Positions 10,827-55,183 are shown, counted from the first letter of the stretch. The stretch: DNA of 64,000 nt from Pseudomonadota bacterium (GCA_040388555.1 JAZKBP010000027.1:20463-84462), one strand, 5' to 3'. Translations and numbers: made by a program. Notes: a model not told the origin generated them from the letters alone.

Positions 10827-12179
10827 CTACGCGGGAGGCAGCGCGATCAGGATCTGCAAGCCGCCGCCGACCCGGTTTTTCACCAAGAGCTCGCCCTGGT
10901 GGCGCGCCACTACGCGCTCGACGATGGCCAGTCCCAGGCCGGCCCCGTTGGCCTGCCCGCGCGCGCTGTCGAGACGGGTGAAGGGTTTGAGCAAGCCGGC
11001 GATCTGCGCGTCCGGCACGCCCGCGCCGTGGTCTTGCAGTTCGATCACTACGCGCGCGCCGCCCGCGCCATGGCGCAACTGGCAGCGCAGGTCGATTTCG
11101 CTCACCTCCTGGCCGGGCGTCTTGCCGTAGCGGCGCGCGTTCTCGACCAGGTTGGCCAGCACGCGGCGCAATTCGGTGGCGTTGCCCAGCACATGCAGGG
11201 CGGGCGCGATGTCGCTCGTCACCCGCAGGCTAGGCACGCGCGCCGCCTCGTGCGCCGCCTCGCCCACCAGGGCGCTCAGGTCAAGCGGGAGGAAATTGGC
11301 CGCGTCGCTCGGCTTGGCGAAGTCGAGGAACTGGCCGATGATGGCGTCCATCTGCGCGATATCGGATTGCATGCCTTCGCGCGCCTCCTGCGCCAGGTTG
11401 GCCATTTCGATTTCCAGCTGCATGCGCGCGAGCGGCGTGCGCAAGTCGTGCGAGATGCCGGCCAGGACCAGGGCGCGGTCGGACTCGACGCGCTGCAAAT
11501 CGTCCACCATCTGGTTGAAGCTGCGGTTGGCCTCGATGATTTCGGTCGAGCCTTTTTCGGGCAGGGCTTGCGGGCGCCGGCCTTGGGCGATCTCGCGCGC
11601 GGCCGCCGTCAGGCGCGCCAGCGGCAGGTTGACCAGGCTCGAGATGAGCACCGCGCCCAGCAGCGAAAACATGCCCGCCAGGCTGGCCCAGCCGAGCCAC
11701 TGGGCGCCGCTCAAGCCTTCAATGCGCTCGCGTTCCAACATCAGCCAGTACTGGTCGTCGTCGATGGTGAAGCTGACCCAGAATCCTGCTTGGCCATTCA
11801 CGCGCCCGGAAAAGCGGGTGTCCGCGCCCAGCCGGTCTTTGACGATGCGCTCGATGTCGGGCATCAAGGGGTAGTCCGGCGCCGGGTCGACCGTGTCGGT
11901 GCTCTCGAGCAGGAATACGCGGATGCCTTCGCGGCTGACCAGGTCGAACAGCAGCTCCTTGGCCAGCTCCGGGCGCATATGGCGTAGCGCTGCCTTGGTG
12001 ATGGTCACCACCGACACCACCAGCTCGGCCGTCTGCTGGGCTTGCGGACCGCGCTGGGCGGCGCTGATCATGCCGACCCAGGACGCCGTCGATAGCGCCG
12101 TCAGGATGGCCAGTAGCACGAAGGTGCGCCAAAACAGGCCGCCCTTGAGCCGGCCCAGGCGGGTCGCGATCGACGTCAT
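10827..12179 (-). CDS. envZ: osmolarity-type sensor histidine kinase EnvZ
   Basis: TM-periplasmic-TM-HAMP layout, H-box AGISHDLRTPLARM, ATP-binding boxes NARRYG, DHGAGV and GAGLGLAIV. It starts 4 nt downstream of ompR. Confidence 0.85.
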   Translation of the reverse strand: MTSIATRLGRLKGGLFWRTFVLLAILTALSTASWVGMISAAQRGPQAQQTAELVVSVVTITKAALRHMRPELAKELLFDLVSREGIRVFLLESTDTVDPAPDYPLMPDIERIVKDRLGADTRFSGRVNGQAGFWVSFTIDDDQYWLMLERERIEGLSGAQWLGWASLAGMFSLLGAVLISSLVNLPLARLTAAAREIAQGRRPQALPEKGSTEIIEANRSFNQMVDDLQRVESDRALVLAGISHDLRTPLARMQLEIEMANLAQEAREGMQSDIAQMDAIIGQFLDFAKPSDAANFLPLDLSALVGEAAHEAARVPSLRVTSDIAPALHVLGNATELRRVLANLVENARRYGKTPGQEVSEIDLRCQLRHGAGGARVVIELQDHGAGVPDAQIAGLLKPFTRLDSARGQANGAGLGLAIVERVVARHQGELLVKNRVGGGLQILIALPPA

Positions 12180-12183
12180 CGCG

Positions 12184-12957
12184 TCAGCGCGGCTGGCCTT
12201 CGGGGATGAACACGTAGCCCAGGCCCCACACGGTCTGGATGTACAGCGGCGAGGAAGGGTCCGGTTCGATCAGCTTGCGCAGGCGCGAAATCTGCACGTC
12301 CAGGCTGCGGTCGAACACCTCGTATTCGCGTCCGCGCGCCAATTCCATCAGTTTTTCGCGCGACAAGGGCTGGCGCGCGTGGCGCGCGAACACCTTGAGG
12401 ACGGAGAATTCGCCCGTTGTCAGCGGCACCGTCTCGCCGTTTTTCTTGAGCGTGCGGGTGGCCAGGTCGAGCACGAACTGGCCGAACTCGAAGCTTTGCG
12501 GGGTTTCGGACGGCGCGCCCGGGATTTCGTCGGGGCCGCGCCGGCGCAGCACGGCGCCGATGCGCGCGACCAGCTCGCGCGGGTTGAAGGGCTTGGGCAG
12601 GTAGTCGTCGGCGCCCATTTCCAGGCCCACGATGCGGTCCACGTCCTCGCCCTTGGCCGTCAACATGATGATCGGGGTCTGGTCGCCGGCCCCGCGCAGG
12701 CGCCGGCAAATCGACAAGCCGTCCTCGCCCGGCAGCATCAGGTCAAGGACCAGCAGGTCGTAGCGCTCGCGCAGCCACAGCTTGTTCATGGCCGGCGCGC
12801 TGTCGGCGGTGACGACGGTGAAGCCTTGTTCGGCCAGATAGCGGCGCAACAGGTCGCGCAGGCGCACGTCGTCGTCGACGACCATGATGCGCGCGCCGTG
12901 GCCGCCGCCTGGGGCGCTTGCGGAATGGTTGGAATTGGTGGACGATGGCATGGTCAT
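12184..12957 (-). CDS. ompR: response regulator OmpR
   Basis: The C-terminus ...LARGREYEVFDRSLDVQISRLRKLIEPDPSSPLYIQTVWGLGYVF closely mirrors the E. coli OmpR sequence as I recall it. Receiver motif VVDDD...DLMLPGEDG is present. Confidence 0.9.
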   Translation of the reverse strand: MTMPSSTNSNHSASAPGGGHGARIMVVDDDVRLRDLLRRYLAEQGFTVVTADSAPAMNKLWLRERYDLLVLDLMLPGEDGLSICRRLRGAGDQTPIIMLTAKGEDVDRIVGLEMGADDYLPKPFNPRELVARIGAVLRRRGPDEIPGAPSETPQSFEFGQFVLDLATRTLKKNGETVPLTTGEFSVLKVFARHARQPLSREKLMELARGREYEVFDRSLDVQISRLRKLIEPDPSSPLYIQTVWGLGYVFIPEGQPR

Positions 12958-13776: not shown

Positions 13777-15654
13777 GTGGCCACTGAAACCGCTGCCAGT
13801 GCCCCCAGCGCGCCGCAAACCTTTGGCGCGACTGCCTGCATCATCCGGCGCGATGATGGGGTGTTTGTCGATCCAATGGCATTGGGCCAAGTGTTCCAGG
13901 CCGCGGTCAACGATGTATTTTTCAGCAATCAATATTTCTCCAAGCTCGATTACGCCGTCTTCGTCAAGATCCTCTACGATTGCGGTCCCAGCCTGCCGCG
14001 CTCGACGACCGGCGAAGCCTTGATCCGGCTGGCCGCCGACGTGCTGCCCTTCAAGCCCGAGCGGCGCGCCCTGTACAAGGCGGTCAAGCTCAATCATGGC
14101 GAAGCCGAGTATTACTTCGAGCAAGTCTACCTGGCCGACCCGGACAATCCGGACGGCAGCGGCACCCCGACGGTGCTCAAGTTCGATGAATTCGTGGCCG
14201 ACATGTGGATGAAGGGGGTGCGCTTCGGGATCGACGCGGTCGGGGTGCGCAACGCCATCTCCTCGGGGCGGACCGAGCGCGTGCTGGTGGCGCGCCGGCT
14301 CGACGCGGCGCCGGGCGTGAACGCCTCCATCATCGAAGTGTCGGACCATCTGCACCGCAGCGACGCGCCGCGCATGCTGGCCAACGGCAAGCTCGACCTG
14401 ATGGCTTACCAGAACCGCTTTCCACAGATCGACAAGGGCGAGCGCCTGCTCAAGAAGGTGCCGCGTTCGGCCGGCACGCTCGGCTTCGAGCTGGCCGGCA
14501 CCCCGATCGAGCCGCCCATTCCCAGCGACATCGAACTGGGGCCCATGGCCGGGGCCGGCACGGTGATCGACATCACGGGCGAAGGCGAATTCCTGGTGTC
14601 GCAAAAGGCGGGTTTTTTGAGCATCGACGCGGGCAGCGGCCAGCTGTCGGTGGAAGACAAGATCATCAGCCGCGAGGGCGTCAGTTCGCGCACCACCGGC
14701 AATTTGCAGCTCACTGGCGACTACGAGGAATATGGCGAGGTGCAGGAGAAGCGGGTGCTCGAGGGCGAGAACATCACCATCCATGCCGACGTGTTTGGCA
14801 ACATCATCTCGCGCGGCGGCACCATTTTGCTCAACCATAACCTGGTGGGCGGCACCGCGCACAACGCCAAGGGCGACATCACGGTCAAGGGCATCGCCTC
14901 GAGCGCGGTGCTGCAGACCAGCGAGGGCACCATCACGCTCGAGCGCGCCGAGAGCTGCACCATCTCGGCCACGCGCGTGAAGATCGACCACGCCACCAAT
15001 TGCGAGATCATCGCCGACGAAGTGACGATCACCGTGGCCGAGGGCTGCGCGGTGGCCGCGCGCAAGGTGTCGATCGAGGCGGCCGGCCCGCGCAAGCAAA
15101 GTGAGATGCTGGTCTATGTGCTGCTGCCCGACAGCAGCAAGATCGACGAGGTGATGGACCAGGTGTCGGCCCGGGTGGACGAGTTCGGCGGCCTGGTCGA
15201 AAAGCGCAAGCTGGAAATGGACACCCTGACCAATATGCCGGACGTGCGCAAGTACATCATGCTCGCCTCCAAGGTGCGCAAGAAGGAATTGGTGCTCACG
15301 CCCGAACAGCTGCCCCAGTTCCAGAAGATGGCGCTGGCGGTGGGGCCGGCGCTCAAGGCCATCACCAAGGTCTCGCTCGACCTGAAGGCGGCCGAGACCG
15401 AGCAGCAGGCGGGCAAGGCCATGCTGGCGCAGTTGGCGCAGCAAAAGAAGGACAGCGGCGGCGGTGGCCAGGTCGAATTGCGCGCGGTGTCGGGCGACAC
15501 CCTGGTGCGCACCATGAAGTTCCACGCCGACGGCAAGAGCGTGTACGACATGCAGTCCAAGGACATCAAGGCTTACCTGCGCGGCAGTTCGGTGGGCGGC
15601 GACATCATCTTTTCCGGCAGCGGCGGCAAGGTCGAGTGGAGCTTCGACGCCTAG
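13777..15654 (+). CDS. FapA-like (DUF342-type) protein
   Basis: 625 aa, GTG start with GGAG 6 nt upstream. The centre is a repetitive beta-helix-like region (GENITIHADVFGNIISRGGTILLNHNLVGGTAHNAKGDITVKG...) and the tail is a coiled coil. I recall this architecture for FapA/DUF342 proteins. Confidence 0.85.
   Translation: MATETAASAPSAPQTFGATACIIRRDDGVFVDPMALGQVFQAAVNDVFFSNQYFSKLDYAVFVKILYDCGPSLPRSTTGEALIRLAADVLPFKPERRALYKAVKLNHGEAEYYFEQVYLADPDNPDGSGTPTVLKFDEFVADMWMKGVRFGIDAVGVRNAISSGRTERVLVARRLDAAPGVNASIIEVSDHLHRSDAPRMLANGKLDLMAYQNRFPQIDKGERLLKKVPRSAGTLGFELAGTPIEPPIPSDIELGPMAGAGTVIDITGEGEFLVSQKAGFLSIDAGSGQLSVEDKIISREGVSSRTTGNLQLTGDYEEYGEVQEKRVLEGENITIHADVFGNIISRGGTILLNHNLVGGTAHNAKGDITVKGIASSAVLQTSEGTITLERAESCTISATRVKIDHATNCEIIADEVTITVAEGCAVAARKVSIEAAGPRKQSEMLVYVLLPDSSKIDEVMDQVSARVDEFGGLVEKRKLEMDTLTNMPDVRKYIMLASKVRKKELVLTPEQLPQFQKMALAVGPALKAITKVSLDLKAAETEQQAGKAMLAQLAQQKKDSGGGGQVELRAVSGDTLVRTMKFHADGKSVYDMQSKDIKAYLRGSSVGGDIIFSGSGGKVEWSFDA
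15277..15652 (+). repeat. direct repeat copy 1 (3' end of the fapA-like gene)
   Basis: Aligned by eye to 16558..16933. Of 376 nt, the only differences are at 15282-15283, 15298 and 15316. Identity ends inside the stop codon (TAG here, TGA in copy 2). Confidence 0.95.
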
Positions 15655-15886
15655 CTTCATGCGACGAAACTTCTCAGATGTAGCGCCTTGATTGATTCGG
15701 AAAGGCCTATGACGAAGTGCGCGGAAGAATCAGGCTAGTTGCACAAAGTGGTCCCTCGGCCCACGCAACCAAGACGAGATTCAAAGGGGCGCGGGCGGCA
15801 CGGCTATCGCGGCCATGAGTCCATCGCCGTGCATTGTAATGCAAACGCAATTTCGCCGACCCAGCAAGTCCCAGGATAACTGTTGT

Positions 15887-16099
15887 CTATTTGAATTTAG
15901 TAAACTCTGTATCAATAGCACGTCCCGCCAGAAACTGCATGAATGTGTCTAAGTTGGCAACAATGCATCCAAAGGCAAGAAAAATAAAGGAACATACAAT
16001 TAGCTCTTCTTTGTCAATTTTCCCAATGGAAAAAAGAAGAGCGGAAACTGCTACGGACATGCAAAAAATTATGATATATAGCGCAAACGCCTTGTTCAT
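15887..16099 (-). CDS. small membrane protein, candidate immunity protein
   Basis: 70 aa with hydrophobic segments (FALYIIIFCMSVAVSALLF, LIVCSFIFLAFGCIVA). It lies 84 nt downstream of the bacteriocin-like gene on the same strand. The Shine-Dalgarno is weak. Confidence 0.5.
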   Translation of the reverse strand: MNKAFALYIIIFCMSVAVSALLFSIGKIDKEELIVCSFIFLAFGCIVANLDTFMQFLAGRAIDTEFTKFK

Positions 16100-16183
16100 A
16101 GCAGTTCTCGAAGGTTTTAATATTTGATATGGGAACGCGAAGTAGCTAAAATTGCGCCCGGCAAACCGGACGCTATCGGACTC

Positions 16184-16393
16184 TTAGTCGGTACCCACCG
16201 CGATTGCGACGCCAGACGCGGCAATTGAAGCACCAAGAGCAACGGCGCCGACGACAGCAGTAGGAATTACCAGGCAGACTGCAACACCAACACCCAACAG
16301 TGTGCACGCAACGGCAAGTGCGCCACCATAGATGGCGTCTTTACTAATGCCGCCACTGACACTGTCGATTTCCATCAAGTCCATTTCTTGCAT
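16184..16393 (-). CDS. class II bacteriocin / class IIa microcin-like precursor with double-glycine leader
   Basis: ATG at 16393 with GGAG 6 nt upstream. The leader is MQEMDLMEIDSVSGG (M-12, E-8, I-7, V-4, G-2, G-1). The 54-aa core is Gly/Ala/Val-rich with two Cys. Confidence 0.7.
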   Translation of the reverse strand: MQEMDLMEIDSVSGGISKDAIYGGALAVACTLLGVGVAVCLVIPTAVVGAVALGASIAASGVAIAVGTD

Positions 16394-16421
16394 TAATAAC
16401 TCCAAACGTTTCTAGTTGTTG

Positions 16422-16438
16422 TACTGTGAATTACAGTA
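16422..16438. promoter_or_regulatory. candidate operator palindrome TACTGT-N5-ACAGTA upstream of the bacteriocin-like gene
   Basis: Perfect 6-bp arms lying 29-45 nt upstream of the ATG in AT-rich DNA. Confidence 0.3.
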
Positions 16439-16557
16439 AGAACAGTATCGCATAGAAAAATAATCAATGCAAATATATCTACTTTAAATAATAATTAGTA
16501 TGATAATTATGGCAGCTATCATGGCGTGCTCGTGCCAACGAATGCGCCACGTATGAA

Positions 16558-16935
16558 CGCAATTAGGAATTGGTGCTCGCGCCCGAACAGCTGCCCGAGT
16601 TCCAGAAGATGGCGCTGGCGGTGGGGCCGGCGCTCAAGGCCATCACCAAGGTCTCGCTCGACCTGAAGGCGGCCGAGACCGAGCAGCAGGCGGGCAAGGC
16701 CATGCTGGCGCAGTTGGCGCAGCAAAAGAAGGACAGCGGCGGCGGTGGCCAGGTCGAATTGCGCGCGGTGTCGGGCGACACCCTGGTGCGCACCATGAAG
16801 TTCCACGCCGACGGCAAGAGCGTGTACGACATGCAGTCCAAGGACATCAAGGCTTACCTGCGCGGCAGTTCGGTGGGCGGCGACATCATCTTTTCCGGCA
16901 GCGGCGGCAAGGTCGAGTGGAGCTTCGACGCCTGA
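16558..16935 (+). pseudogene. orphan 3' fragment of the fapA-like gene (direct repeat copy 2)
   Basis: Encodes the same last ~121 residues as 13777..15654 apart from T->A and Q->E changes. It is preceded by an in-frame TAG (16564-16566) and by unrelated AT-rich DNA. Confidence 0.85.
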
Positions 16936-17003: not shown

Positions 17004-17402
17004 TCAGTCATGCACTTTCGCGCGGTTGGCCTTGAGCTGACCGTGCGCGTTCTTGCCGTCGAGGCGTTTGCGCTGCGAACTGCGGGTGGGGCGGGTGGCG
17101 CGGCGGGTGGCGGGCAGCACGGCGGCGCGTTCGATGATCTCTTGCAGGCGCTGCAAGGCGTCGGCCTTGTTTTGCTCGAGGCTGCGCGACTGCTGGGCCT
17201 TGAGCACCACCACGCCCTCGCGCGTGATGCGGGTGTCGCGCAGGGCCAGCAGGCGCCCTTTGACTTCGTCCGGCAGCGAAGAAGCGGGAATGTCAAAGCG
17301 CAGATGCACCGCGCACGAGACCTTGTTGACGTTTTGCCCGCCCGGCCCCTGGGCCCGGATGGCGATGAATTGGACTTCCTGCGCCAGTGCCTCGGGCGTC
17401 AC
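17004..17402 (-). CDS. arfB: alternative ribosome-rescue factor ArfB (peptidyl-tRNA hydrolase)
   Basis: Contains GPGGQNVNKV (GGQ motif) and a basic C-terminal tail. The GTG start at 17402 overlaps the upstream stop (GTGA). The longer track ORF 17004..17738 would overlap the HDOD gene. Confidence 0.85.
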   Translation of the reverse strand: MTPEALAQEVQFIAIRAQGPGGQNVNKVSCAVHLRFDIPASSLPDEVKGRLLALRDTRITREGVVVLKAQQSRSLEQNKADALQRLQEIIERAAVLPATRRATRPTRSSQRKRLDGKNAHGQLKANRAKVHD

Positions 17403-18481
17403 GAGAGGGCGGCCGACCCGGCTTGCGGATGCTCGGCGTCGGCGTCGTGCAGCTCGGCCCCCTCGACGGCGTCGAGCCCGTGGTAGCAATCCAGCGCCGA
17501 CTTCGACAAACCCTTGAACAGGCGGGTGTCGCCCTCGGCCAGGCGCGCCTGCTCGACCAGGATGCGCGTCTTGCTCAGATAGTCCGACAGCGACAGCAGG
17601 GTGCCCAGCGGCGACATGGTCACGCCCTTGCGCATGCTGCCCTGTTCGCCGATGGCGACGGTGACCGCTGGCGAGAAATTCCATTCGCGCCCGATATTGC
17701 AGGTCAGGGTGCGCGCGTCGCGCAGCAGGCTGGCGCAAAACATGGCCGAGCCGAGCTGCTTGCCATCCTTGGCCACCTGGTCCATCGTGCGCAGCGTGAC
17801 GATCAAGCCCACATGCTGGACCAGACCGGCCAGGAAGGCTTCGAAGGGATCGATCCCCATTTCCTCGGCCAGGGTGCGCATGGCCACGGCGCAGCGCTCG
17901 GACTGGTCCCAGATGCGCGGCGCCAGGGTGCGTGTGAAGACGCCGGAATTCATATCGATGATGGGGCGGAAAGCGACGCCCGTGATCAGCTGGCGCAAGC
18001 CTTCCTGGCCGATCACCATCACCGCGTGCTCGACGCTGGTGATGGTCACGCCGGTGCCCAGCAGGGAGCTGTTGGCCAGGCGGATCACGGCCGCCACCAG
18101 CACCACGTCGTGCGAGATGGTGCGCGAGAGCTGGGCCGAGGAGAAGTTATCGCTGCGCAGGCTTTGCAGCAGCTGGGGAATCAGGCCGGGCAGGCGCCGC
18201 ACCATGGTTGACGATTGCTGCGACTTGACGGCCGCGGCCAGGGTATCGAGGACCTGGGTTTCGAGCGGGTTGGTGTCGAGATCCGATTCGTCCTGGGCGT
18301 CGAACAGCCAGTTGTAGTAGTTCGAGTTGACGTTGTCTTTTTGCTCGAAGGAGACGCCGCGCGGGGCGCTTGCAGGCTCGCTAGCGGCGGGCGTGGCCGG
18401 CGTCATCGCGGGCGCGGCTGGCGGCTGGGGAGCTGGCGTGGACGGGGAACCGGAAAACAGACGCTGCAGCCATTGATACAT
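17399..18481 (-). CDS. HDOD domain-containing signalling protein
   Basis: Pro/Ala-rich N-terminus followed by an HDOD-type helical domain (...VAAVIRLANSSLLG...). The start is MYQWLQRLF with GGAG 8 nt upstream. Confidence 0.75.
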   Translation of the reverse strand: MYQWLQRLFSGSPSTPAPQPPAAPAMTPATPAASEPASAPRGVSFEQKDNVNSNYYNWLFDAQDESDLDTNPLETQVLDTLAAAVKSQQSSTMVRRLPGLIPQLLQSLRSDNFSSAQLSRTISHDVVLVAAVIRLANSSLLGTGVTITSVEHAVMVIGQEGLRQLITGVAFRPIIDMNSGVFTRTLAPRIWDQSERCAVAMRTLAEEMGIDPFEAFLAGLVQHVGLIVTLRTMDQVAKDGKQLGSAMFCASLLRDARTLTCNIGREWNFSPAVTVAIGEQGSMRKGVTMSPLGTLLSLSDYLSKTRILVEQARLAEGDTRLFKGLSKSALDCYHGLDAVEGAELHDADAEHPQAGSAALS

Positions 18482-19165: not shown

Positions 19166-21160
<1,995 letters not shown>

Positions 21161-38500: not shown

Positions 38501-39028
38501 TTATTGATTCGGCATTGGGGGCAGTGCGGCCACGAACGCGGCCAAGCCGCCCTTGTCGCGAATGGCGATCGCTTCATCCAATTGCGCAGAGCGATTTTCA
38601 GGACGCTTGGCGAGCAGGCTTTCATAGGCGCGCAGCAAGCCTTCAACGCCGGCCAGGGTTTTCGCAGCGAGGTCGCTCGGTTTGGCGCGCGCGTCGGCGA
38701 TATGGTGTTGAACTTGGTACGCCGCCGTGCTTACGGTGTGATGAAAGCGCATCACACGTTTGAGATCGCCCTTGGCCGCGCCATTCATGAACCAGAATGC
38801 GCCGTCATCCGGGCCCAGCATGTAGTCGGGCGTGTCATCGGCCCATTTTTCGAACCAGCGTCCATCGGCGGACGTCATCGTGCCGATCGGATCTTTATCC
38901 GATGCCAAGGCGATTTTCACGACACGGGCTTCTTCGTCAGCCGTGCCGGCGGCGAGGGCCGGCGCGTTGAAGCTGGCGATGATGGCGAGGACGGCGCAAG
39001 CGCGTTGAACGAGGTGTTGAAATTTCAT
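38501..39028 (-). CDS. secreted hypothetical protein
   Basis: The start MKFQHLVQRACAVLAIIASFNAPALA forms a signal peptide. I recognise no family. Confidence 0.6.
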   Translation of the reverse strand: MKFQHLVQRACAVLAIIASFNAPALAAGTADEEARVVKIALASDKDPIGTMTSADGRWFEKWADDTPDYMLGPDDGAFWFMNGAAKGDLKRVMRFHHTVSTAAYQVQHHIADARAKPSDLAAKTLAGVEGLLRAYESLLAKRPENRSAQLDEAIAIRDKGGLAAFVAALPPMPNQ

Positions 39029-39245
39029 GCTAGGACTCCAAGAGTGTGTGAAGGTTGAATGCGTCGGGCTATAACGACATGAGTAGATGTCGTCGCAGCT
39101 CTGCGTATCCAACCTTGAGCAAGTCTTGTGCCAGCACTGAATTTAGCTTGTCTGAGTATGCAAATGGCGCGATATCGCGAAAATGCGCATCCAAAGGTGC
39201 CCGCATTCGGGCAGTCGATGTTCGAGTCCGGACAAACCTTGGGCG

Positions 39246-39641
39246 CTAAGCTGGCTGGATCGCAAGCGCCGATCGCGCGTCCGCTTTCAGGGCGAAGTGG
39301 GTCCATATGCCGCCAAGGAGGTCGACGGCACCGAAGAGAATAATCATGGGACTGGCCAGGCCAAGTAAAGCGAAGGTGGTGAAGGTTGCGAAAACAATGG
39401 CGCGGGTGTACACCGACGCTTCGAGGAAAGGCTTGTTTTCATGCTTGGCCGCGATCCAGCTATAAACGCCGATCATGAACGCGGTGACGCCGACGACGCG
39501 TATCCACACCTCGGAGGTCGCGGCGATGCCGAAAATCGACAGCAAGACATTTGGCGCGACGATCAATACGGCGCCAATGGCGAACAGGTAAATGGCGAAC
39601 ACCTTGGCGCTAAAAGCTGACTTGGACATGTTTTCCTTCAT
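39246..39641 (-). CDS. hypothetical four-helix membrane protein
   Basis: 131 aa with four hydrophobic segments. Confidence 0.6.
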   Translation of the reverse strand: MKENMSKSAFSAKVFAIYLFAIGAVLIVAPNVLLSIFGIAATSEVWIRVVGVTAFMIGVYSWIAAKHENKPFLEASVYTRAIVFATFTTFALLGLASPMIILFGAVDLLGGIWTHFALKADARSALAIQPA

Positions 39642-39655
39642 AGTGGGTGGCTGGC

Positions 39656-40105
39656 TTAGCGCGCTTCTACCGCGGCTTTGATATCGTTAATGTCTTGCAG
39701 GATGGCCTTGCGCATCACGCCCTTGAAGAACAATGACATCGGGATGAGCATCAAGCTAGCGAGGAAACCTTGCGGCTTGGATTCGTGAGACTCGGTCAAA
39801 ACCATCGCGCCGGCGCTCGCGGAAATGCGTTTGGTGCAAACGAACGCAAAGCCGCCATCTTCTGCCTTGGTTTTGTAGAACTCGTTTTCAAGCGCATCCG
39901 TGATCGATTTTTCCACGCTCGCCGGTTTGCCAAAGAGCATGCGTGTTTCGCGCCATTTCAGGCCGACCAGTCCGCTCGCGGGTTTTTCCAGGATCTCGAT
40001 CGCGTCGATACCATTGATGAATGAAGCGGCGTTCTCGATATCCGTGATCGCTGCCCAGATCGCTGGCTTGGATCCATTGATGCTCATCTGGACTTCAACG
40101 ATCAT
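39656..40105 (-). CDS. SRPBCC-fold protein
   Basis: The start MIVEVQMSINGSKPAIWAAITDIENAASF has AGGAG 7 nt upstream. It shows the START-like pattern. Confidence 0.65.
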   Translation of the reverse strand: MIVEVQMSINGSKPAIWAAITDIENAASFINGIDAIEILEKPASGLVGLKWRETRMLFGKPASVEKSITDALENEFYKTKAEDGGFAFVCTKRISASAGAMVLTESHESKPQGFLASLMLIPMSLFFKGVMRKAILQDINDIKAAVEAR

Positions 40106-40243
40106 GGCGATACTCCTGGGTTTAGGATATCCGGACAGCGCGGGGCCGGGCGTCAAGGCACCGCGCCGCTGGATTGTACTAGCCAATCATTCAATGCGTC
40201 GACTTCGGTTGACGCTAGAAGGCTTGCATACGCATGCATCGAT

Positions 40244-40963
40244 TCATGGTCCGCTGTCCGAACACGTTTTCCGCTTCTTCGCCCAGATCGCAACGAGTGC
40301 CAAGCCTGATAGCTGGAAGGGTAGGCGCCACCAATCATCGAGCGGGTTCGAAACGAGCGGTCCGAACGACCAGGCCGCGTCATACCCAGCATGCATGGCG
40401 ATCGGCACGAGCAGGGATCCGGTCCGAATATAAACGAGCCCAAGTACGTATGAAAGCGAGAAGATCCCGACAGCGCCAACGATGGTGAGCGGTTGTGCGC
40501 CGTAATGGTAAACAGTGAAAATTGCGCTGGAAAGCAGGAGTGCGGAAATCCGTCCGAAGTGGTCTTCGAGCAGCGTCTGCACTACGCCTCGATAGAGAAG
40601 CTCTTCTCTCACTGCGACGATGATGCTGGTGAACCCAAAGATGATACGCACAGTCATGTCAGTCGGCATGCCACCGTCAAAGAGAAAGGGAACGAGCAGC
40701 AATGGCAGCATTCCAGCGAAATACAAGGGCGTAAACTGCGCCGCCACGTGCGGCCGCGGACGTTGTTGAATGATTTCCTTGAACAGGAGCCAATAGGCTG
40801 CGATTGTCACCGCGCGGCAGCCCGATAAAAGCAATTCCAATCCGACGCCTTCCGCGTGCGCGCGCAGCCAGGTACGTGTCAAGATCGCATACGCAAGCTC
40901 GATTGCGATCGCCAATATGATTCTGTTCGACATCGCAGGTTTTGCGAGATTAACTTCACTCAT
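40244..40963 (-). CDS. CPBP-family intramembrane glutamic endopeptidase (CAAX protease/Abi-like)
   Basis: Polytopic membrane protein with VREELLYRG (the EExxxR motif) and a downstream FxxxH. Confidence 0.75.
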   Translation of the reverse strand: MSEVNLAKPAMSNRIILAIAIELAYAILTRTWLRAHAEGVGLELLLSGCRAVTIAAYWLLFKEIIQQRPRPHVAAQFTPLYFAGMLPLLLVPFLFDGGMPTDMTVRIIFGFTSIIVAVREELLYRGVVQTLLEDHFGRISALLLSSAIFTVYHYGAQPLTIVGAVGIFSLSYVLGLVYIRTGSLLVPIAMHAGYDAAWSFGPLVSNPLDDWWRLPFQLSGLALVAIWAKKRKTCSDSGP

Positions 40964-41013
40964 GGAGGTTTGCGATGCGATGAATATGGCGAGTGCGCGT
41001 TAATATTGGACGC

Positions 41014-41370
41014 TCATTCATAGACGATTTCCACGTCCGGGACCGAACGTTCTTTCGTGAATACACCTGCCGAAAGCACACCTTTAATCGATAAGCGACT
41101 TTCGGAAAGCCATGTGAGTTTCAACGGGGCGTTGCCGTCGACGATAAGCACGTTGCCGCCGTCGTCTTGGAGCGAGGACGACGCTGCGATAACAGAGACC
41201 TGTGTATTGAACCCCGTCGCGGCACCACAACTTCTGTGGAAGACAACGGCCTTTAGATTTCCGGAGGGCGACACGACGCTGGCTTGCACTTCGTTCTCGC
41301 ATATCGAATCGCATCCGAGCAGCAACAAAGCGGCGGGGAGGTACGCGAGCCAAGAGTAAATTGATTTCAT
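41014..41370 (-). CDS. small lipoprotein
   Basis: The start MKSIYSWLAYLPAALLLLGC contains the lipobox L-L-G-C. Confidence 0.6.
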   Translation of the reverse strand: MKSIYSWLAYLPAALLLLGCDSICENEVQASVVSPSGNLKAVVFHRSCGAATGFNTQVSVIAASSSLQDDGGNVLIVDGNAPLKLTWLSESRLSIKGVLSAGVFTKERSVPDVEIVYE

Positions 41371-41495
41371 CGTCCAATGATAGCAAACGAAATTCCGGCA
41401 ACTGAACCATATTCCACTGTCCGCACCTGAGGTGGCTAAGTCGTCACGTCGATTGTCGAGTTGCCGGCTTCGCCCAGTCACCCGCCGGAACGGAC

Positions 41496-41927
41496 TTAGG
41501 CGGTATGCGATGCCAGCAAGAGAGCGCGGACCTGCTCATATTCTTCAAGGCGCGCATAGTCTTTTTCGGTCGGCTTGGCAATCCGGCTTAAATCCATATT
41601 CTCCGCGTTATCGGCGAGCTTTACTACAAGTGCTACCGGGTCGGCTGCCGCCCGAGCCGCCGCTTGCAAGCGGGATTCGCCAGGATATTTTGTCAGCGCT
41701 TGGATCGCTGATATCACCGCCGGCGGAAAACGTTCATGTTGCAACTGCTCGAGTGTCACCGCAGTATCCTCAACGACATCGTGCAGCACAGCCGCCATGC
41801 GCTCATGATCGCTCGACACCCGAAGCATCACGCGCAAGGGATGAAGGATATACGCTTGGCCGGCTTTGTCGACCTGGCCCGCGTGTGCCGCAGCCGCAAT
41901 TGCAATTGCGCGTTCAAGTGTCGCCAT
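41496..41927 (-). CDS. small HD-domain protein, RelA/SpoT-type hydrolase-like (small alarmone hydrolase candidate)
   Basis: AHAGQVDKAGQAYILHPLRV...AAVLHDVVEDT fits the (p)ppGpp-hydrolase HD pattern. It is 143 aa from ATG 41927. Confidence 0.7.
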   Translation of the reverse strand: MATLERAIAIAAAAHAGQVDKAGQAYILHPLRVMLRVSSDHERMAAVLHDVVEDTAVTLEQLQHERFPPAVISAIQALTKYPGESRLQAAARAAADPVALVVKLADNAENMDLSRIAKPTEKDYARLEEYEQVRALLLASHTA

Positions 41928-42050
41928 GGGTGCTCCGATATGGATGTCGTACCCCCATAGTAGCAAATGCGTATCTTGTCTTGGCACACCGAATTGCATG
42001 AGAAACATGGAGCCCAGTCGCCTCGTACTGTCTCCGTATGTTGCGAGTGC

Positions 42051-42176
42051 CCGATTTCGCACGATAGCGTACGATTTCGCCCGATTGCGGCGCGAATTCT
42101 GCCGATTCGTATCCGAAGGCACGCGCTTTGAATCCGAAAACGCACGATTTCGAGCCGAAATTGAACGAATTTCGTC
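42051..42176. repeat. phased array of CGAT(T)TCG-containing decamers
   Basis: CCGATTTCGC/ACGATAGCGT/ACGATTTCGC/CCGATTGCGG/CGCGAATTCT/GCCGATTCGT occupy 42051-42110 in exact 10-nt register. Further copies lie at 42144 and 42165. Confidence 0.6.
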
Positions 42177-45754: not shown

Positions 45755-45895
45755 CGTCGCAGTGTGCCACTACCCTGCATCGCGCGCAGGCTGGCGTTTC
45801 CGATTGGCTAGCGACCTCCAGCTACCCGAGTGTGTGGCACATACGGATTTGCTACCTACATATTCATGGGTACCGAATGGGACTGCAAACTTCAG

Positions 45896-46246
45896 TCAGT
45901 GAAGGCGAACCGTGCAGCTAATGGGCTGGCCGTTTGCCTTAATGGTGATGTCGAAACGTTCCGGAATTTTTGGTACATAACGGAGGTTGCCGCTACTTCC
46001 ATCAATCTGTAAATCGGCACGCAGAAGATGCGCGCCGCACGCGTCAATTTTGCGCAATTCAAGGAGACGGACACTCGGCGCTCCGGCCTCCTTCAATCGG
46101 CGCATGAATTCCGAAATGTCAGAATCGGCTTCTGCCAGGGCGATAACACGAGCGCCTCCGATTCCCGAACTTGCAAATGGAATAAAGACCGATGACGGCG
46201 TCGCGGCAGCCAGGGCTGATGAGAGATTGAGTGGATGAGGTTTGCA
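45896..46246 (-). pseudogene. open frame lacking a start codon upstream of an internal ATG (69-aa ORF 45896..46105); possible gene remnant
   Basis: My own translation shows the frame open from 46246 (...VFIPFASSGIGGARVIALAEADSDISEFMRRLKEAG...). No ATG/GTG/TTG occurs before 46105, and that ATG has no Shine-Dalgarno. Confidence 0.2.
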
Positions 46247-46260
46247 TCAATCCGGACCAA

Positions 46261-46542
46261 TCACACTTTATCGAAGGACACACTGATGCCAAACGTGTTT
46301 TCGAGCCAACCCTCTGCGGCCTTGAAGTCTCCGAAGCGGACAACGTGATCGCCGCCAGCAAGGTGCAGCGTGATAACCGGGGTGACCACGACTGGACTTA
46401 TCTGAGGTTCCCCGTCTCCAGCCAAGCTTGCGACGTTTACACCTCCTCCTGTTCGCACGGTCTTGCAGCTGACAGCTTCCACCTTTTCAAGATCGACGAA
46501 GTGGTTGGGGTTGTCCTTTTCCGGCACCTTAAAGTATTTCAT
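46261..46542 (-). CDS. hypothetical protein (93 aa)
   Basis: The start MKYFKVPEKD has a strong AGGAGG 6-7 nt upstream. It is divergent from parA. Confidence 0.55.
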   Translation of the reverse strand: MKYFKVPEKDNPNHFVDLEKVEAVSCKTVRTGGGVNVASLAGDGEPQISPVVVTPVITLHLAGGDHVVRFGDFKAAEGWLENTFGISVSFDKV

Positions 46543-46717
46543 GCTGTCCCTCCTGATCATGCCGGCAACCGGCCGGCTCGGATTCTGCATTCTAGCGCCT
46601 TCTGGACGGATCATGCTTAGATGACACTTGCTCCTGAGTAAGCGTAAAAACGGTTCTTCCTATAATCGTATTGTCGGCAAAGCGTATTGCCTCCAATCCG
46701 TAAATAAGGGAACCAGC

Positions 46718-47347
46718 ATGATCATCGGCTTACTGAACCAGAAGGGCGGGGTGGGGAAGACCACACTCGCCATCGCACTTGCATCGTGCTTCGCCCAGAT
46801 GGGCTATCGTGTCCTCCTGGTGGACATCGACCCCCAACGCAGCGCCCTGGATTGGGCGGCAGCGCGCCAGGGAGATCCGTTGTTCTCCGTCGTTGGGCTG
46901 CCGCGGGCGTCCATCCACAAGGAAATCGCCTCGATCGGCGCCGGCTACGACATTGTGATCCTGGACGGCCCGCCGCGCGTGACCGACCTGGCCCGCAGTG
47001 CCATCCTGGCGTCGGACCTAGTGGTGATCCCGGTGCAGCCATCGCCCTATGACATCTGGGCGGCCGAGGAGATCATCAAGCTGGTGGACGAGGCGCGCAT
47101 CTATAAGGAAAACCTGAAAGCCTGCTTTGCGATTAACCGCAAAATCGCAAATACGGCCATCGGGCGCGACGTGCGCGACGCTTTGGCTGCCTACCCACTG
47201 CACGTCCTGGAGTTGACCGTCACGCAGCGCGTGGTGTTTGCCGAGGCAGCTGCATCCGGCCAGGCGGTATGGGAGGTCGACCCGGACAGTCCGGCCAGCG
47301 CCGAGACGACCGCACTTGCAACGGAAATTTTGGAGTATCTGGCATGA
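46718..47347 (+). CDS. parA: ParA-family partition ATPase (small plasmid type)
   Basis: Deviant Walker A NQKGGVGKTT, VLLVDIDPQ, and ILDGPP, at 209 aa from MIIGLLN. Confidence 0.9.
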   Translation: MIIGLLNQKGGVGKTTLAIALASCFAQMGYRVLLVDIDPQRSALDWAAARQGDPLFSVVGLPRASIHKEIASIGAGYDIVILDGPPRVTDLARSAILASDLVVIPVQPSPYDIWAAEEIIKLVDEARIYKENLKACFAINRKIANTAIGRDVRDALAAYPLHVLELTVTQRVVFAEAAASGQAVWEVDPDSPASAETTALATEILEYLA

Positions 47348-47589
47348 GCAAGAAGGTGACGTTCGGCACGCGCCCGACTGCGCGCGAGACACCGCCAGCG
47401 CCCGCAGGTGACGACTGGGTAACGAACCGCAGCGAAGGCGGTGCTCCAGAACCACTCAAGCGCTTGACGTTCGACGTTCCCGAGAGCTTGCACACCGCAA
47501 TGAAGATCGACTGCGCGCGGCGCAAGGTGAAGATGGGACACGAAGTGCTGGCCCTGCTTGAAGCGAAATGGCGTCCAAAGCAGGACTGA
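47344..47589 (+). CDS. ribbon-helix-helix partition/centromere-binding protein (ParG-like)
   Basis: ATGA overlap with parA. A disordered basic N-terminus is followed by KRLTFDVPESLHTAMKIDCARRKVKMGHEVLALLE, an RHH pattern. Confidence 0.7.
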   Translation: MSKKVTFGTRPTARETPPAPAGDDWVTNRSEGGAPEPLKRLTFDVPESLHTAMKIDCARRKVKMGHEVLALLEAKWRPKQD

Positions 47590-47658
47590 TGCGAATCCCG
47601 GTGTCATAGTCGGCGATTTGTTGAGCTGTAACACTATCGCTCGAAGCGGGTTTGCCCT

Positions 47659-48414
47659 TTACTTTGCCGATACCAATACGAACTCCTTCGGCAGGGCCAT
47701 CGTTTTTTGCCATTCTGTGGTGATCGTCAGACGAGAAAAATCTATTTCCACTGGGCCTTCGCTAATCCCTTCCGGGATTTCTGGTTCAATGCGAACATTA
47801 AATCGTGCAAAATCGACCTTCTTGCCGTCAATAAAATCAAAGGCGGTGAGCTTGAGTATCGGGCCTTCGATTGTGCCCATTATCTGCACCGTCGGATCAG
47901 GGAATCCCCATTTCGGGACGGCTCTTGACGTAATCATTCCTACCGCCGTTCCACCTTCCATTGATAGCTCGATTCTTACTGACGGCTCCGCAGGGCCGCT
48001 CTTGATTGATTGGGCTTGGCTAGTCCATATTCCCGTCAAATTTCGACTGAGCCGCCACTGATGCCATTCAGCGGCAAGCGTTTGATAGGCAGTCGACGGT
48101 ATTTTGGGGATGTCCTTCACGTTTGCCACGCCTGCGGCCGACAGCGCAACGCAAATGGCGACAAGCAGCGCCGCGACACGACGCCCCCACACCACGACAC
48201 TGGACGTTTTAGTAGGGATCGAAGGCGATTGTCGAACGTTCCGACGCAGGTGAGTTCGTTGCGACGGGTGCACAGGTGGCTTACGCATCTTGTTGGCGGA
48301 CTGTAATGGATTGGACCCTGAATCATATCGCAAAGCGCGATCATCTCCGCTCGCGCAGGAGGCGTCGGTCCTCCCTGAAGCGAAATGGCGCCCCAAGTCA
48401 GGTTGATTTGCCAT
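47659..48414 (-). CDS. hypothetical single-pass membrane protein
   Basis: 251-aa ORF with one TM helix (VAALLVAICVALSAAGV) and a ~160-aa extracytoplasmic domain. An alternative start lies at 48288. Confidence 0.5.
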   Translation of the reverse strand: MANQPDLGRHFASGRTDASCASGDDRALRYDSGSNPLQSANKMRKPPVHPSQRTHLRRNVRQSPSIPTKTSSVVVWGRRVAALLVAICVALSAAGVANVKDIPKIPSTAYQTLAAEWHQWRLSRNLTGIWTSQAQSIKSGPAEPSVRIELSMEGGTAVGMITSRAVPKWGFPDPTVQIMGTIEGPILKLTAFDFIDGKKVDFARFNVRIEPEIPEGISEGPVEIDFSRLTITTEWQKTMALPKEFVLVSAK

Positions 48415-48447
48415 ACTGTGTTTTTATCCTGTTGTTTTGGGGGCGCC

Positions 48448-48672
48448 ATGGAAACCTTCGAAGAACGCCTTGTGCCGTTCTACTTGGTTCGCTATTTCAA
48501 CGAAGTCACCAAAAAATGGGCGACGACTAGGTGGCGCATGTCCGCGGAGGCTGCCGCGAGCCGATACGCGGGCCAGCAGTATGAGATTTTGCGTGGAACC
48601 AGGATCTACCAGCGCCTCGGTGGCGACCCGATGCGTAGCCAGGCCGGCCACCTCTACCAGAAGCGTGAATAG
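48448..48672 (+). CDS. hypothetical protein (74 aa)
   Basis: METFEERLVPFYLVRYF... with a GGGGG Shine-Dalgarno-like run 4 nt upstream. It is the only plus-strand ORF in the string. Confidence 0.4.
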   Translation: METFEERLVPFYLVRYFNEVTKKWATTRWRMSAEAAASRYAGQQYEILRGTRIYQRLGGDPMRSQAGHLYQKRE

Positions 48673-49155
48673 CTACCAAAGGCAACTGATGTCGATCGCG
48701 TTGCTGTTCTTGTCCTTGGGGTAGGTGACGGTGCATTCAGTGGTCGCGTCATCGAGTTGCCTTGATAGGATTGCGTCGCGCTGGCCGCCGTCGCCGTAGT
48801 AACACGCCATCCATTTCTCACCATAGCCATCCCGGCTAAGGCCTTCCCACTTCGAAAATCCTCGGCCGCCGTCCTTGCCCGAGCCCTTAGTCCTACCAAC
48901 CGTCGTTGGCTTTGACATCGTCATTGTTTCGGGCGCCCCAAGCATGAGGCCAGCCGAATGCAATGGCAGACCGGGCTGAAACTCGAAAGGCACGAACGGC
49001 GTCCATCCATCGGGTGCCTCGACGATCTTGATCGACTTCCTCGGTATTTCAGCCGGGCATGCAATGCGATGCTCGACTGGCGCGACATTGTGGAACCCCA
49101 ATTGGCGTAATAACGAGGAAATAAGCAATATCGAACTATGGAAGGTGAATCGCAT
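48673..49155 (-). CDS. hypothetical protein with signal-peptide-like N-terminus
   Basis: MRFTFHSSILLISSLLRQ... The ATG lies inside the last codons of the upstream ORF (20-nt overlap). Cysteines are spaced through the sequence. Confidence 0.5.
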   Translation of the reverse strand: MRFTFHSSILLISSLLRQLGFHNVAPVEHRIACPAEIPRKSIKIVEAPDGWTPFVPFEFQPGLPLHSAGLMLGAPETMTMSKPTTVGRTKGSGKDGGRGFSKWEGLSRDGYGEKWMACYYGDGGQRDAILSRQLDDATTECTVTYPKDKNSNAIDISCLW

Positions 49156-49534
49156 ATTCCATCATGTTTGGACTAAAATCAAAATATGGCCATGGAGCTG
49201 GTTCAGTGAAGCCAAACTTGTCGCGTTCACCATTTATACCTAACTCATGTGGTTTCTTGATTTGTTTGCCAAATGTATTGGTTGGAGCGGCGTCAAGTAT
49301 GGCAGCAAATTTTGCGTGAATTTTGTCGATATCCGCTATCTGTCGAATATTGGATTTAATGTCTTGCATTCTCTTTAACCATTCTGGGTGGGCGGTGATC
49401 GTGTTTAATGTGCATGCCCCCTGATTCCAAAGGCGGACTCCAAGCACGACATGGTCAGAATATAAGTAATTAACGCCGATTACTAGCTTTTGGCGTTGTT
49501 CCAAGTAGATATCATAGCTGTCGTATTTAGACAT
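49136..49534 (-). CDS. hypothetical protein (132 aa)
   Basis: The preferred start is ATG 49534 (MSKYDSYDIYLEQ) with GGGAA upstream. The track start at 49615 is a TTG without a Shine-Dalgarno. Confidence 0.5.
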   Translation of the reverse strand: MSKYDSYDIYLEQRQKLVIGVNYLYSDHVVLGVRLWNQGACTLNTITAHPEWLKRMQDIKSNIRQIADIDKIHAKFAAILDAAPTNTFGKQIKKPHELGINGERDKFGFTEPAPWPYFDFSPNMMEYAIHLP

Positions 49535-49598
49535 ACGTTTCCCATGTCCCAAAGTCCGATCGAGTGCGCTATTTGCAAACCCCGGTTTTTCAGAAATT

Positions 49599-49910
49599 CT
49601 ATTCTGATTCTTCAAAAAAAGAAAAGGCGCAAGACTTGATTATTCCTCGACGTGTTTTATAACAAATAATATGTCCATCAGAATTGGCCAAGTTCCCCAT
49701 TTCGTCTTGGTCATAGACTACATCGTAATCTCCTACGAATTCAGCGCCATATTCATCAGCGACTCTCTTTATTTTTACAAAAGTAACGTCCCCAACTCCA
49801 TCAAATAGACCAGAACTTCTTGCCTTGGCGTTCCACGTTAGTCTTTGGCCGCTACGCAATGCCAATGACCTGCGCCAGCTATCTCGCTCTTTGTCGTCAT
49901 AAATTCGCAT
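49599..49910 (-). CDS. hypothetical protein (103 aa)
   Basis: ATG start in low-G+C DNA. I recognise no family. Confidence 0.45.
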   Translation of the reverse strand: MRIYDDKERDSWRRSLALRSGQRLTWNAKARSSGLFDGVGDVTFVKIKRVADEYGAEFVGDYDVVYDQDEMGNLANSDGHIICYKTRRGIIKSCAFSFFEESE

Positions 49911-50117
49911 GAAATTTTCATTCCTGGATATTGGTAATATATTTAGTTCTGTCTCGCTATATTTGGGAAGACGTTGACATCAAAGCTTGGAAAGATCCGG
50001 GAGTGCGCGCAATTTCTTTATGGCTGACATGATGAACTGATTCCATGAAACGAACAACCTTTGCCCTGCAGCGCTCAGGCTAAACAGTCACGATCCATCT
50101 ACCATAATCCTCGCGGA

Positions 50118-50519
50118 TTATTTCCAATAATTCAATATCTTCCTCATCTTCATATCAATTTGGTATGCGCGTTCAGTTTCTAGTTTACGTTCTGGGGTGG
50201 TGCGTTTCATTCTTTCTTCTTCTAGTCTCTTTACTTCAGCCTGATATCCTGGTGTATTTTGAGCGATACGTAATAGTTCATTCGGATCAGTGATGGCTCG
50301 CCGCGGCTCGCGCGCACTCTCAGGTTGCGCGTAATATCTATTTTTTAACCTATCGAGTTCGCTATTAGCATTGCGAATAATATTGGACCAGCGCTCCTTG
50401 GTTTGCTGTTCATATTCGACCGACGTATAGTTGAGCTCGCTGCGTCGAGCAACTTGAAGGCGGCTAATTTCTTGTTCGAGGGCGGCCTCCGCCCTTTCAA
50501 ATTCTTGTCTGTTCATCAT
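50118..50519 (-). CDS. hypothetical coiled-coil protein (133 aa)
   Basis: AAGGA lies 6 nt upstream. The product is a highly charged heptad-like sequence rich in E/R/K/Q. Confidence 0.55.
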   Translation of the reverse strand: MMNRQEFERAEAALEQEISRLQVARRSELNYTSVEYEQQTKERWSNIIRNANSELDRLKNRYYAQPESAREPRRAITDPNELLRIAQNTPGYQAEVKRLEEERMKRTTPERKLETERAYQIDMKMRKILNYWK

Positions 50520-50606
50520 GGTCGTCCTTGTGGAGCGGTAGGGTATGAACCGTATGAACCATGTCCTGTCCCTACCGGAAAATTATATTTATTAATCTAA
50601 CAACTA

Positions 50607-50765
50607 TCAAGAACGCAAATTTCTAAGCTTTTGTTCCTGTCGCCGAAGTTCTTCCTCCATGGAGCGTCGATAATCTGGCTCGTCTTTTGCTCGTTGCGAG
50701 TCAAGGTTATCTTCAAGGCCATTTATAATATCCTGAACTACACGTTCTTCATCTTTTGTCGCCAA
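50607..50765 (-). CDS. hypothetical charged mini-protein (52 aa, TTG start)
   Basis: My own translation gives (M)ATKDEERVVQDIINGLEDNLDSQRAKDEPDYRRSMEEELRRQEQKLRNLRS. GGAG lies 7 nt upstream, and an in-frame TAA just upstream forces the TTG start. Confidence 0.4.
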   Translation of the reverse strand: MATKDEERVVQDIINGLEDNLDSQRAKDEPDYRRSMEEELRRQEQKLRNLRS

Positions 50766-50863
50766 AGTTTATCTCCAATTGAGTGAGTAGTTAAAAATAG
50801 CTAAATTTATCTCTTCCATAGCAACTCTATTTTGCCATGAAATTATCAGCATCTTAGTGAATT

Positions 50864-51067: not shown

Positions 51068-51145
51068 GATGTTAAAACTCCTTGGTTAAAGTGGTTCAAT
51101 TGTTTCGTTGAAAGACAACTTCCAAAAATTGGAATATCCGACGAA

Positions 51146-51946: not shown

Positions 51947-51951
51947 GGCCG

Positions 51952-53260: not shown

Positions 53261-55183
<1,923 letters not shown>

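Follow-up and report, generated by a model that had tools for sequence, protein, structure and literature searches.

Campbell-type insertion-duplication is known mainly as a laboratory outcome obtained with suicide plasmids. In Escherichia coli, insertion of the element e14 or of phage 21 in icd duplicates the 3' end of this gene and leaves a pseudogene, icdC, beyond the prophage, and excision recombines the two copies (PMC13626634 and Hill et al. 1989 cited there). Extensive imperfect direct repeats bracket the microcin H47 island, which encodes no recombinase; host functions bring about its excision and integration in a RecA-independent manner (PMC3191183, PMC5426353). Class II microcins are defined by a small precursor with a leader of ~15-18 amino acids (aa) ending in GG or GA, an adjacent small membrane immunity protein and an exporter (PMC12219008). 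Here we analyse a stretch of 64,000 nucleotides (nt) from a Pseudomonadota bacterium (GCA_040388555.1 JAZKBP010000027.1:20463-84462; in the following, the window), in which the 3' end of a fapA-family gene is duplicated in direct orientation and the two copies bracket a foreign cassette that is predicted to encode a class II microcin-like bacteriocin and its immunity protein. The downstream copy occupies the native position of the gene end and carries derived changes at the edge which faces the cassette.

The duplicated 3' end of fapA

The framework of the locus is formed by the following features, with positions counted from the first letter of the window:

13777-15654, + strand: intact fapA-family (DUF342) gene of 625 codons with stop codon TAG (Pfam FapA_N, homologue alignment, synteny)
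15277-15653, + strand: repeat copy 1 (X1), continuous with the 5' part of fapA and ancestral at each of the four positions where the two copies disagree
16558-16934, + strand: copy 2 of the repeat (X2), the orphaned 3' end of fapA, at the native site beside arfB, with derived changes at its left edge
17004-17420, - strand: arfB, encoding the ribosome-rescue peptidyl-tRNA hydrolase (NCBIfam PRK09256, E 3e-49, 166 bits, cut-off 100)

When the window is compared with itself at a fixed offset of 1281 bp, 15277-15653 and 16558-16934 coincide without gaps as a 377-nt direct repeat with four mismatches, namely (copy 1 vs copy 2) GA vs TT at 15282-15283, A vs G at 15298 and C vs G at 15316. All four fall within the first 40 nt of the 377, after which 15317-15653 is perfectly identical to its counterpart over 337 nt, and a match of this length with so few differences cannot be a product of chance. 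A repeat search and a self-BLAST of the window concur (98.9% identity, 376 nt). The identity stops just past the T of the stop codon, which reads TAG in copy 1 (15652-15654) and TGA in copy 2 (16933-16935). The coordinates, the list of mismatches, the 1281-bp period and the end of the identity within the stop codon had all been given in an initial annotation of this DNA, and the fixed-offset comparison and self-BLAST confirm them. Gapped local (Smith-Waterman) alignment with shuffle controls detected no decayed homology past either repeat edge, and a search of the 64-kb window revealed no further match to the repeat (X) or to the spacer between its copies (S; 15654-16557, 904 bp).

Both inner junctions recur in a second assembly. 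A 1005-bp contig (L009) of the Logan k-mer assembly of run SRR26324622 encodes the exact bacteriocin and is 100% identical to 15623-16627; this run is the only other data set found to carry the cassette, and possibly it is also the source of the assembly to which the window belongs. On the left the contig extends 31 nt past position 15654, the first base specific to copy 1, and on the right 30 nt past position 16597, the last base specific to copy 2. About k-1 beyond such a base is where a unitig with k = 31 has to stop at a branch of the graph. In SRR26324622, S is joined on the left to the end of X and on the right to the X start with TT, G and G, while the second version of each edge is present as well. 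Since the contig spans both inner junctions, a scaffolding artefact is ruled out.

Copy 1 consists of the last 376 nt of fapA plus the T of its stop codon. The gene as a whole matches Pfam FapA_N with 44.9 bits (E 1.1e-11; curated cut-off 27), and its product aligns over the full length to 120 homologues of 598-645 aa, the best of which shows 90% identity; 1304 homologues were retrieved at E<=1e-50, several of them named flagellar assembly protein A by their sources. Judged by profile and alignment, the gene that ends in copy 1 is a member of the FapA/DUF342 family, and the homologue alignment upholds the earlier view that copy 1 completes an intact gene.

At all four differing sites copy 1 has the state of the relatives: among the 120 homologues R501 is invariant, K502 is present in 119, K503 in 91, T508 in 117 and Q514 in 99. 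At the last two positions the residues of copy 2, A508 and E514, occur in none of them (0/120), and the DNA of three related loci (L010, L012 and L001) shares the bases of copy 1 at the differing sites. The differences are therefore derived in the orphan, and we rejected a diverged functional allele as the source of the edge variants, because neither residue is found in any homologue and the relatives match copy 1.

The TT change creates an in-frame TAG at 16564-16566 in copy 2. Behind this derived stop lies an open reading frame (ORF) of 121 codons (16570-16935) with a TTG start (or GTG at 16573), just ahead of which stands an internal AGGA of fapA; a consensus scan found no promoter-like site upstream of it on the + strand. 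Expression of the ORF as a free C-terminal fragment of FapA, from the AGGA-GTG start, is conceivable but unlikely. The initial description of copy 2, as an untranslatable orphan preceded by an in-frame TAG and by DNA of low G+C content (GC), consequently needs some correction: the in-frame TAG and the displaced position of the orphan stand, but "untranslatable" is too strong for a copy in which 121 codons follow the stop. Likewise, 16406-16510 does have a GC of 0.24, but the last 47 nt of the spacer (16511-16557) have a GC of 0.57, so that copy 2 is not immediately preceded by the AT-rich stretch.

A scan of species-representative genomes, together with look-ups of close homologues, assigned the window to the Oxalobacteraceae, with relatives in Telluria, Massilia and Duganella. 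The gene order conserved in this family is envZ-ompR-small ORF-fapA, followed by the convergent arfB and HDOD genes and then by cheW and an ABC-F gene. In loci L001, L002 and L012 the fapA stop is separated from the convergent arfB stop by 2-80 bp, and in the window 68 bp separate the end of copy 2 from arfB; this copy thus occupies the native position of the gene end. On the evidence of synteny, arfB is the native convergent neighbour of fapA and the outer flanks of both repeats are native DNA, which agrees with the earlier interpretation of copy 2 as a displaced orphan. An orphan fapA 3' fragment was found in none of 12 related loci, and none of them carries the duplication without foreign DNA, a state that the initial annotation had named as evidence against its reading.

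Further variation was observed around fapA in relatives. The gene for the 90%-identical FapA (L010) is followed by DUF1003-MarR-ClC genes (L010 3990-6913), about 8 kb downstream of fapA in two Massilia loci (L004 and L005, 11.9-20 kb) include a two-component system, and L008 (11857-11988) is devoid of arfB and HDOD. From these gene contents the DNA downstream of fapA is, in our reading, a variable spot in Oxalobacteraceae. Two metagenome-assembled genomes from Duganella and Pseudoduganella contain two full tandem fapA paralogues (L003 8-2916 and L006 8057-11797), each 46-53% identical to the FapA of the window, which indicates that whole-gene duplication of fapA recurs in the family. The envZ/ompR pair of the window (10827-12957) is located ~1 kb upstream of fapA. 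A passage in PMC5311971 describes expression of microcin PDI in E. coli as being under EnvZ/OmpR control; because the pair belongs to the conserved synteny, its position next to a bacteriocin locus is probably coincidental.

The spacer and its predicted bacteriocin-immunity cassette

The spacer is a composite of intermediate-GC ends and a low-GC core (15881-16510), in which the genes are encoded on the strand opposite to fapA:

15654-15880, no strand: left part of the spacer, GC 0.56, supplying the AG of the fapA stop codon TAG
15853-15867, - strand: terminator-like hairpin after the immunity gene (consensus scan; pattern match only)
15887-16099, - strand: putative immunity gene, 70 aa, with two hydrophobic segments (about residues 1-29 and 30-57); GC at third codon positions (GC3) 0.39
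16154-16173, - strand: GC-rich hairpin that separates the bacteriocin gene from the immunity gene; 7 of its 8 pairs are G-C (consensus scan; pattern match only)
16184-16393, - strand: bacteriocin precursor, 69 aa, with leader MQEMDLMEIDSVSGG and a mature peptide of 54 aa; GC3 0.50
16488-16515, - strand: candidate sigma-70-like promoter (9 of 12 positions in a consensus scan), situated where the AT-rich stretch (16406-16510) ends on its right side

The mature peptide is hydrophobic and rich in Gly and Ala, and GGAG is found 6 nt ahead of the ATG of the precursor. The putative immunity ORF follows 84 nt downstream of the bacteriocin gene, and the hairpin between the two is a possible attenuating terminator. 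The GC3 of the bacteriocin gene (0.50) and of the immunity gene (0.39), compared with 0.887 in fapA and 0.849 in arfB, marks the cassette as foreign to the genome. Together with the double-glycine leader, this contrast supports the initial claim that the duplication brackets a foreign bacteriocin cassette. The precursor is similar to Pfam Bacteriocin_IIc at E 5e-4 to 2e-3 (18.6-20.3 bits, below the gathering score of 27.1), and it has no NCBIfam match. In its size (<~100 aa) and in its leader of 15 aa, which ends in GG, it conforms to the published definition (PMC12219008), and we accordingly describe the cassette, from its predicted products, as a class II microcin-like bacteriocin with a presumed immunity partner.

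The left part (15654-15880) contains no recognisable gene, has a folding z-score of -0.36 and no Rfam match, and is without homology to the native DNA downstream of fapA or to any related locus compared. For this part and the right end (16511-16557), no homologue, ORF or structure was found; the intermediate-GC ends could be remnants of an earlier genomic context that was carried along with the cassette. No DNA similarity of S to plasmids or phages was detected, a plasmid protein search with the cassette returned one chance-level match, and a scan of viral contigs gave no match.

In a word-indexed search of 5.8 billion proteins both the exact bacteriocin and the 70-aa putative immunity protein were found only as themselves. 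When 1.84 billion cluster representatives were scanned exhaustively with HMMER, six relatives of the bacteriocin with 44-54% identity were found, and three more distant ones were obtained from metagenome DNA, where the search employed a three-member alignment because a seven-member alignment was too diverse. The leader, including E8, V12 and G14, is kept in the six relatives and the three further metagenome loci, and a mature N-terminus of the form [IVL]S.DA.YG is common to the bacteriocin and the six relatives. Two of these seven family members match Bacteriocin_IIc and one matches MccV, in each case below threshold.

At the nine other family loci (L013-L023) the cassettes are solitary, of low GC, and situated in intergenic DNA among housekeeping genes, e.g. 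between gltD and mlaF (L013) or beside holC and tatABC (L018). A small ORF downstream of the bacteriocin, as in the window, is also present in L013, L014 and L017. Flanking direct repeats of at least 30 nt were found at none of the nine, so that the duplication appears as a property of this event and not of the cassette family. No bacteriocin exporter was seen within 6-10 kb in L013, L015 or L018. Two side observations concern individual members: L017 (392-1570) contains two consecutive small-gene pairs (70+79 aa and 71+80 aa), the second of which begins with the bacteriocin relative, and has the look of bacteriocin-immunity pairs arranged in tandem; and two of the three metagenome relatives (L021, 235-426, and L023, 489-692) have an in-frame stop within the region of the mature peptide, and may be pseudogenes or contain sequencing errors.

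Elsewhere in the window, a low-GC island at 45800-53200 (GC 0.42-0.57 vs ~0.65) adjoins htpG (53261-55183). It encodes a ParA-like ATPase (46628-47347) and a protein with a C-terminal cold-shock domain (51146-51631), its remaining ORFs being without Pfam match, and its edges showed neither an integrase nor a tRNA. A stretch of reduced GC (~0.55) at 39000-42100 encodes a CAAX/Rce1-like intramembrane protease (40244-40963), a family often tied to bacteriocin self-immunity, and an HD-domain protein (41496-42122). Finally, the ABC-F ATPase gene contains a 41-nt direct repeat with 95% identity (19728-19768 and 20601-20641), which most likely reflects the two homologous ATP-binding domains of its product.

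Origin of the duplication

The reading which we tentatively favour, and which we regard as close to but slightly short of an even proposition, is an insertion-duplication, in which circular DNA bearing the cassette and a fapA 3' fragment entered the chromosome by a single homologous crossover. One reciprocal RecA crossover of the chromosomal fapA with a 1281-bp DNA that was circular or had been circularised, and that consisted of the cassette and a fapA 3' fragment of the same lineage, would have kept fapA full-length and left the old 3' end beside arfB as a non-functional orphan. Since the first two bases of the spacer rebuild the stop codon (T followed by AG), the length of FapA is unchanged. 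That the accompanying fragment came from the same lineage follows from the near-identity of the copies, as the nearest other fapA is only ~85% identical in DNA. The circle itself could stem from a sibling genome in which an earlier insertion was excised in an aberrant, illegitimate way. With perfect repeats of 337 nt the insertion should be reversible by host recombination, and recombination between the repeats would restore a scar-free fapA-arfB site and release a 1281-bp circle. A cassette between repeats 0.9 kb apart should be lost at appreciable frequency by RecA-dependent recombination. One that is still in place must have arrived recently or be maintained by selection, which could act on cells that lose the immunity gene and thereby become exposed to the bacteriocin of their neighbours.

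Terminal inverted repeats at the ends of S and a short target-site duplication are absent, and S contains neither an attC-like or other significant structure nor an Rfam family; with the lack of edge homology, these results disfavour transposase and integron mechanisms. A recombinase or integrase was recognised neither in S, which has two small ORFs only, nor among the 40 window ORFs (part of the total) that were scanned with Pfam, and no tRNA near the cassette was found in the window. The initial annotation had stated that no recombinase is present, with which the 40 ORFs scanned and the absence of transposase-type repeats and tRNA agree. Its view that recombinase-free movement would be unusual for a bacteriocin cassette is not supported, given the precedent of the microcin H47 island (PMC3191183, PMC5426353). 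The Campbell-type crossover which it proposed survives as the simplest route to an X-S-X structure with 337 nt of identity, but the product would be no different if duplication and DNA capture had occurred in one step.

Several points weigh against the crossover. No conspecific empty or filled site and no circular form was found, and the exact FapA is not on record; the species-representative genome scan for a conspecific site gave a best identity of only 62%, and the best FapA relative (90%) has different downstream genes. A circle bearing a host gene fragment requires an extra illegitimate event beforehand. Counted as three events, the edge mismatches all fall in the first 40 of 377 positions, for which uniform mutation gives (40/377)^3, or ~0.001. 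This cluster, derived in copy 2, is not predicted by a plain Campbell crossover and needs an add-on, for which error-prone joining of S and X, or a later re-homogenisation of most of copy 2, are candidates; in the latter case copy 1 might have been the donor in a gene conversion, or a fapA-arfB segment of a conspecific might have been imported from the right. The k-mer graph is compatible alike with the integrated form and with a chromosome with one X plus a free 1281-bp X-S circle, although the integrated form (or an equilibrium of both) is much more likely, given that such a circle has no replication function. Finally, no peptidase-containing ABC transporter (PCAT) or membrane fusion protein for export was found among the large ORFs of the 64-kb window, and the function of the cassette is a prediction; the exporter may be located elsewhere in the genome.

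The crossover could be extended to a more far-reaching proposal, which we consider unlikely: the 1281-bp unit might be a recombinase-free mobile cassette with a captured piece of a host gene as its homology arm, the circle being passed between conspecifics (e.g. by transformation), re-entering fapA harmlessly and being kept by virtue of its immunity gene. If the insertion-duplication reading is right, the locus would be a natural example of a very small weapon cassette that enters and leaves the chromosome by means of host recombination and a borrowed host gene segment alone, scarlessly and with its target intact. As searches for integrases and transposases are blind to such events, this route of bacteriocin spread is possibly under-counted. 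On present evidence it is represented by a single instance, with a mechanism that we infer.

Alternatively, the duplication may have arisen in situ and in one step, through a break in or near the 3' end of fapA and illegitimate repair (end-joining or sister template switching) by which foreign filler was captured and 377 nt were duplicated, with no circle or crossover involved. We judge this possible but rather unlikely. The identical X-S-X product would result, the repeat edges are sharp and without extended homology, and the composite nature of S with its intermediate-GC ends and low-GC core is what a captured foreign fragment would be expected to show. The derived changes, all within 40 nt of the S/X2 junction, fit an error-prone illegitimate joint somewhat better than they fit a crossover, but no mutations accompany the X1/S junction. 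In bacterial recombination, moreover, duplication combined with capture is rarer than single-crossover integration, which counts in favour of the latter.

It is improbable that the locus derives, as a remnant or a satellite, from an integrative element that inserts site-specifically in the manner of e14 in icd, that supplied the gene 3' end and whose integrase has been lost or acts in trans. Such an element would account for the layout shared with icd-e14-icdC, i.e. an intact gene and a displaced C-terminal pseudogene (PMC13626634), for the different stop codons of the copies and for a right repeat boundary that coincides with the end of the coding sequence and renders the insertion non-disruptive; the microcin H47 island, too, is a case of a bacteriocin island that uses functions not its own. 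However, S and the 40 scanned ORFs contain no integrase, and there is no tRNA. The 337-nt perfect identity far exceeds an att core and is unexpected for an independently derived gene end, the ancestral residues lie on the gene-contiguous copy and the odd ones on the displaced copy, and att-like flanking repeats are missing at the nine other cassette loci.

We regard an ambiguity of assembly as very improbable. In that case the chromosome would have a single fapA 3' end, X-S would exist apart from it on a circle of 1281 bp, or else in a minority or amplified form, and the assembler would have threaded it in. A de Bruijn graph with a 337-nt exact repeat would fit fapA-X1-arfB plus a circle (X2-S) equally well, L009 breaks at the repeat on either side, and the window is taken from a 112-kb contig. 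Yet a 1281-bp circle without a replication gene could not persist alone, 337 nt are within the reach of paired-end inserts and the assembler resolved the repeat, and the copy-specific variants link S with the TT/G/G edge and the 5' part of fapA with the GA/A/C edge, as integration requires.

A functional repeat system, be it a polymorphic-toxin orphan, a silent cassette for variation of the FapA C-terminus or the template/variable pair of a diversity-generating retroelement, is hardly credible, for it shares with the locus only the superficial layout of a gene 3' end with a partial copy downstream, while the C-termini are identical save for two derived substitutions (0/120 homologues) and the stop. 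The retroelement was rejected for lack of a reverse transcriptase in the neighbouring genes and because the mismatches (GA/TT, A/G, C/G) are not adenine-specific. Silent cassettes and polymorphic toxins were rejected on account of the same C-terminus in both copies, the non-toxin nature of the FapA family and the lack of orphan fragments in the 12 loci, and the resemblance to displaced 3' ends of toxin genes that had been noted initially fails with them, there being no alternative module.

Comparison with described systems

After this weighing of alternatives, the single crossover with a circular cassette remains our preferred reading, and Campbell-type insertion-duplication is a close counterpart. 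In both, direct repeats bracket the insert, one of them continuing the gene and the other adjoining the native downstream DNA, and in both the event would be reversible by homologous recombination without a recombinase of its own. The locus differs in that the insert is 0.9 kb of natural foreign DNA without vector functions, and in that the fragment ends exactly at the stop codon and leaves the gene undisrupted.

With e14 in icd the locus has in common a gene kept intact through its duplicated 3' end and a displaced C-terminal fragment beyond the insert. However, e14, a prophage of 15 kb, encodes a site-specific integrase of its own, and the icd and icdC copies differ, whereas the insert of the window measures 0.9 kb, no integrase was found and the two copies agree perfectly over 337 nt. 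Microcin H47 is likewise encoded by a chromosomal system that is bracketed by direct repeats and has no recombinase, but its island extends over 13 kb, includes export genes and is flanked by att-like repeats which are common to many genomic islands, and its RecA-independent excision uses short segments of identity. By contrast, the repeat in the window is the duplicated end of a housekeeping gene and is long enough for ordinary homologous recombination.

Similarly, the orphan modules of polymorphic toxins and their immunity genes (CDI, Rhs) present a partial 3' copy downstream of a full gene with an immunity-type gene in between. In the window, however, the copies have the same sequence, no alternative toxin domain is present, the main gene is not a toxin, and the toxin-immunity pair is self-contained on the opposite strand.

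As to the cassette, its 15-aa GG leader, its Gly/Ala-rich hydrophobic mature peptide and the adjacent gene for a membrane protein are as in class II microcins (PMC12219008, PMC9746304), whereas the family to which it belongs matches the Bacteriocin_IIc and MccV models only below threshold and comprises some ten uncharacterised members, and no PCAT or membrane fusion protein lies near the cassette. The layout of the locus is, in sum, a variant of known architectures and not a new kind of element, and its cassette adds an uncharacterised peptide family of about ten members to those bacteriocins of environmental Betaproteobacteria that have a double-glycine leader and resemble class II microcins.

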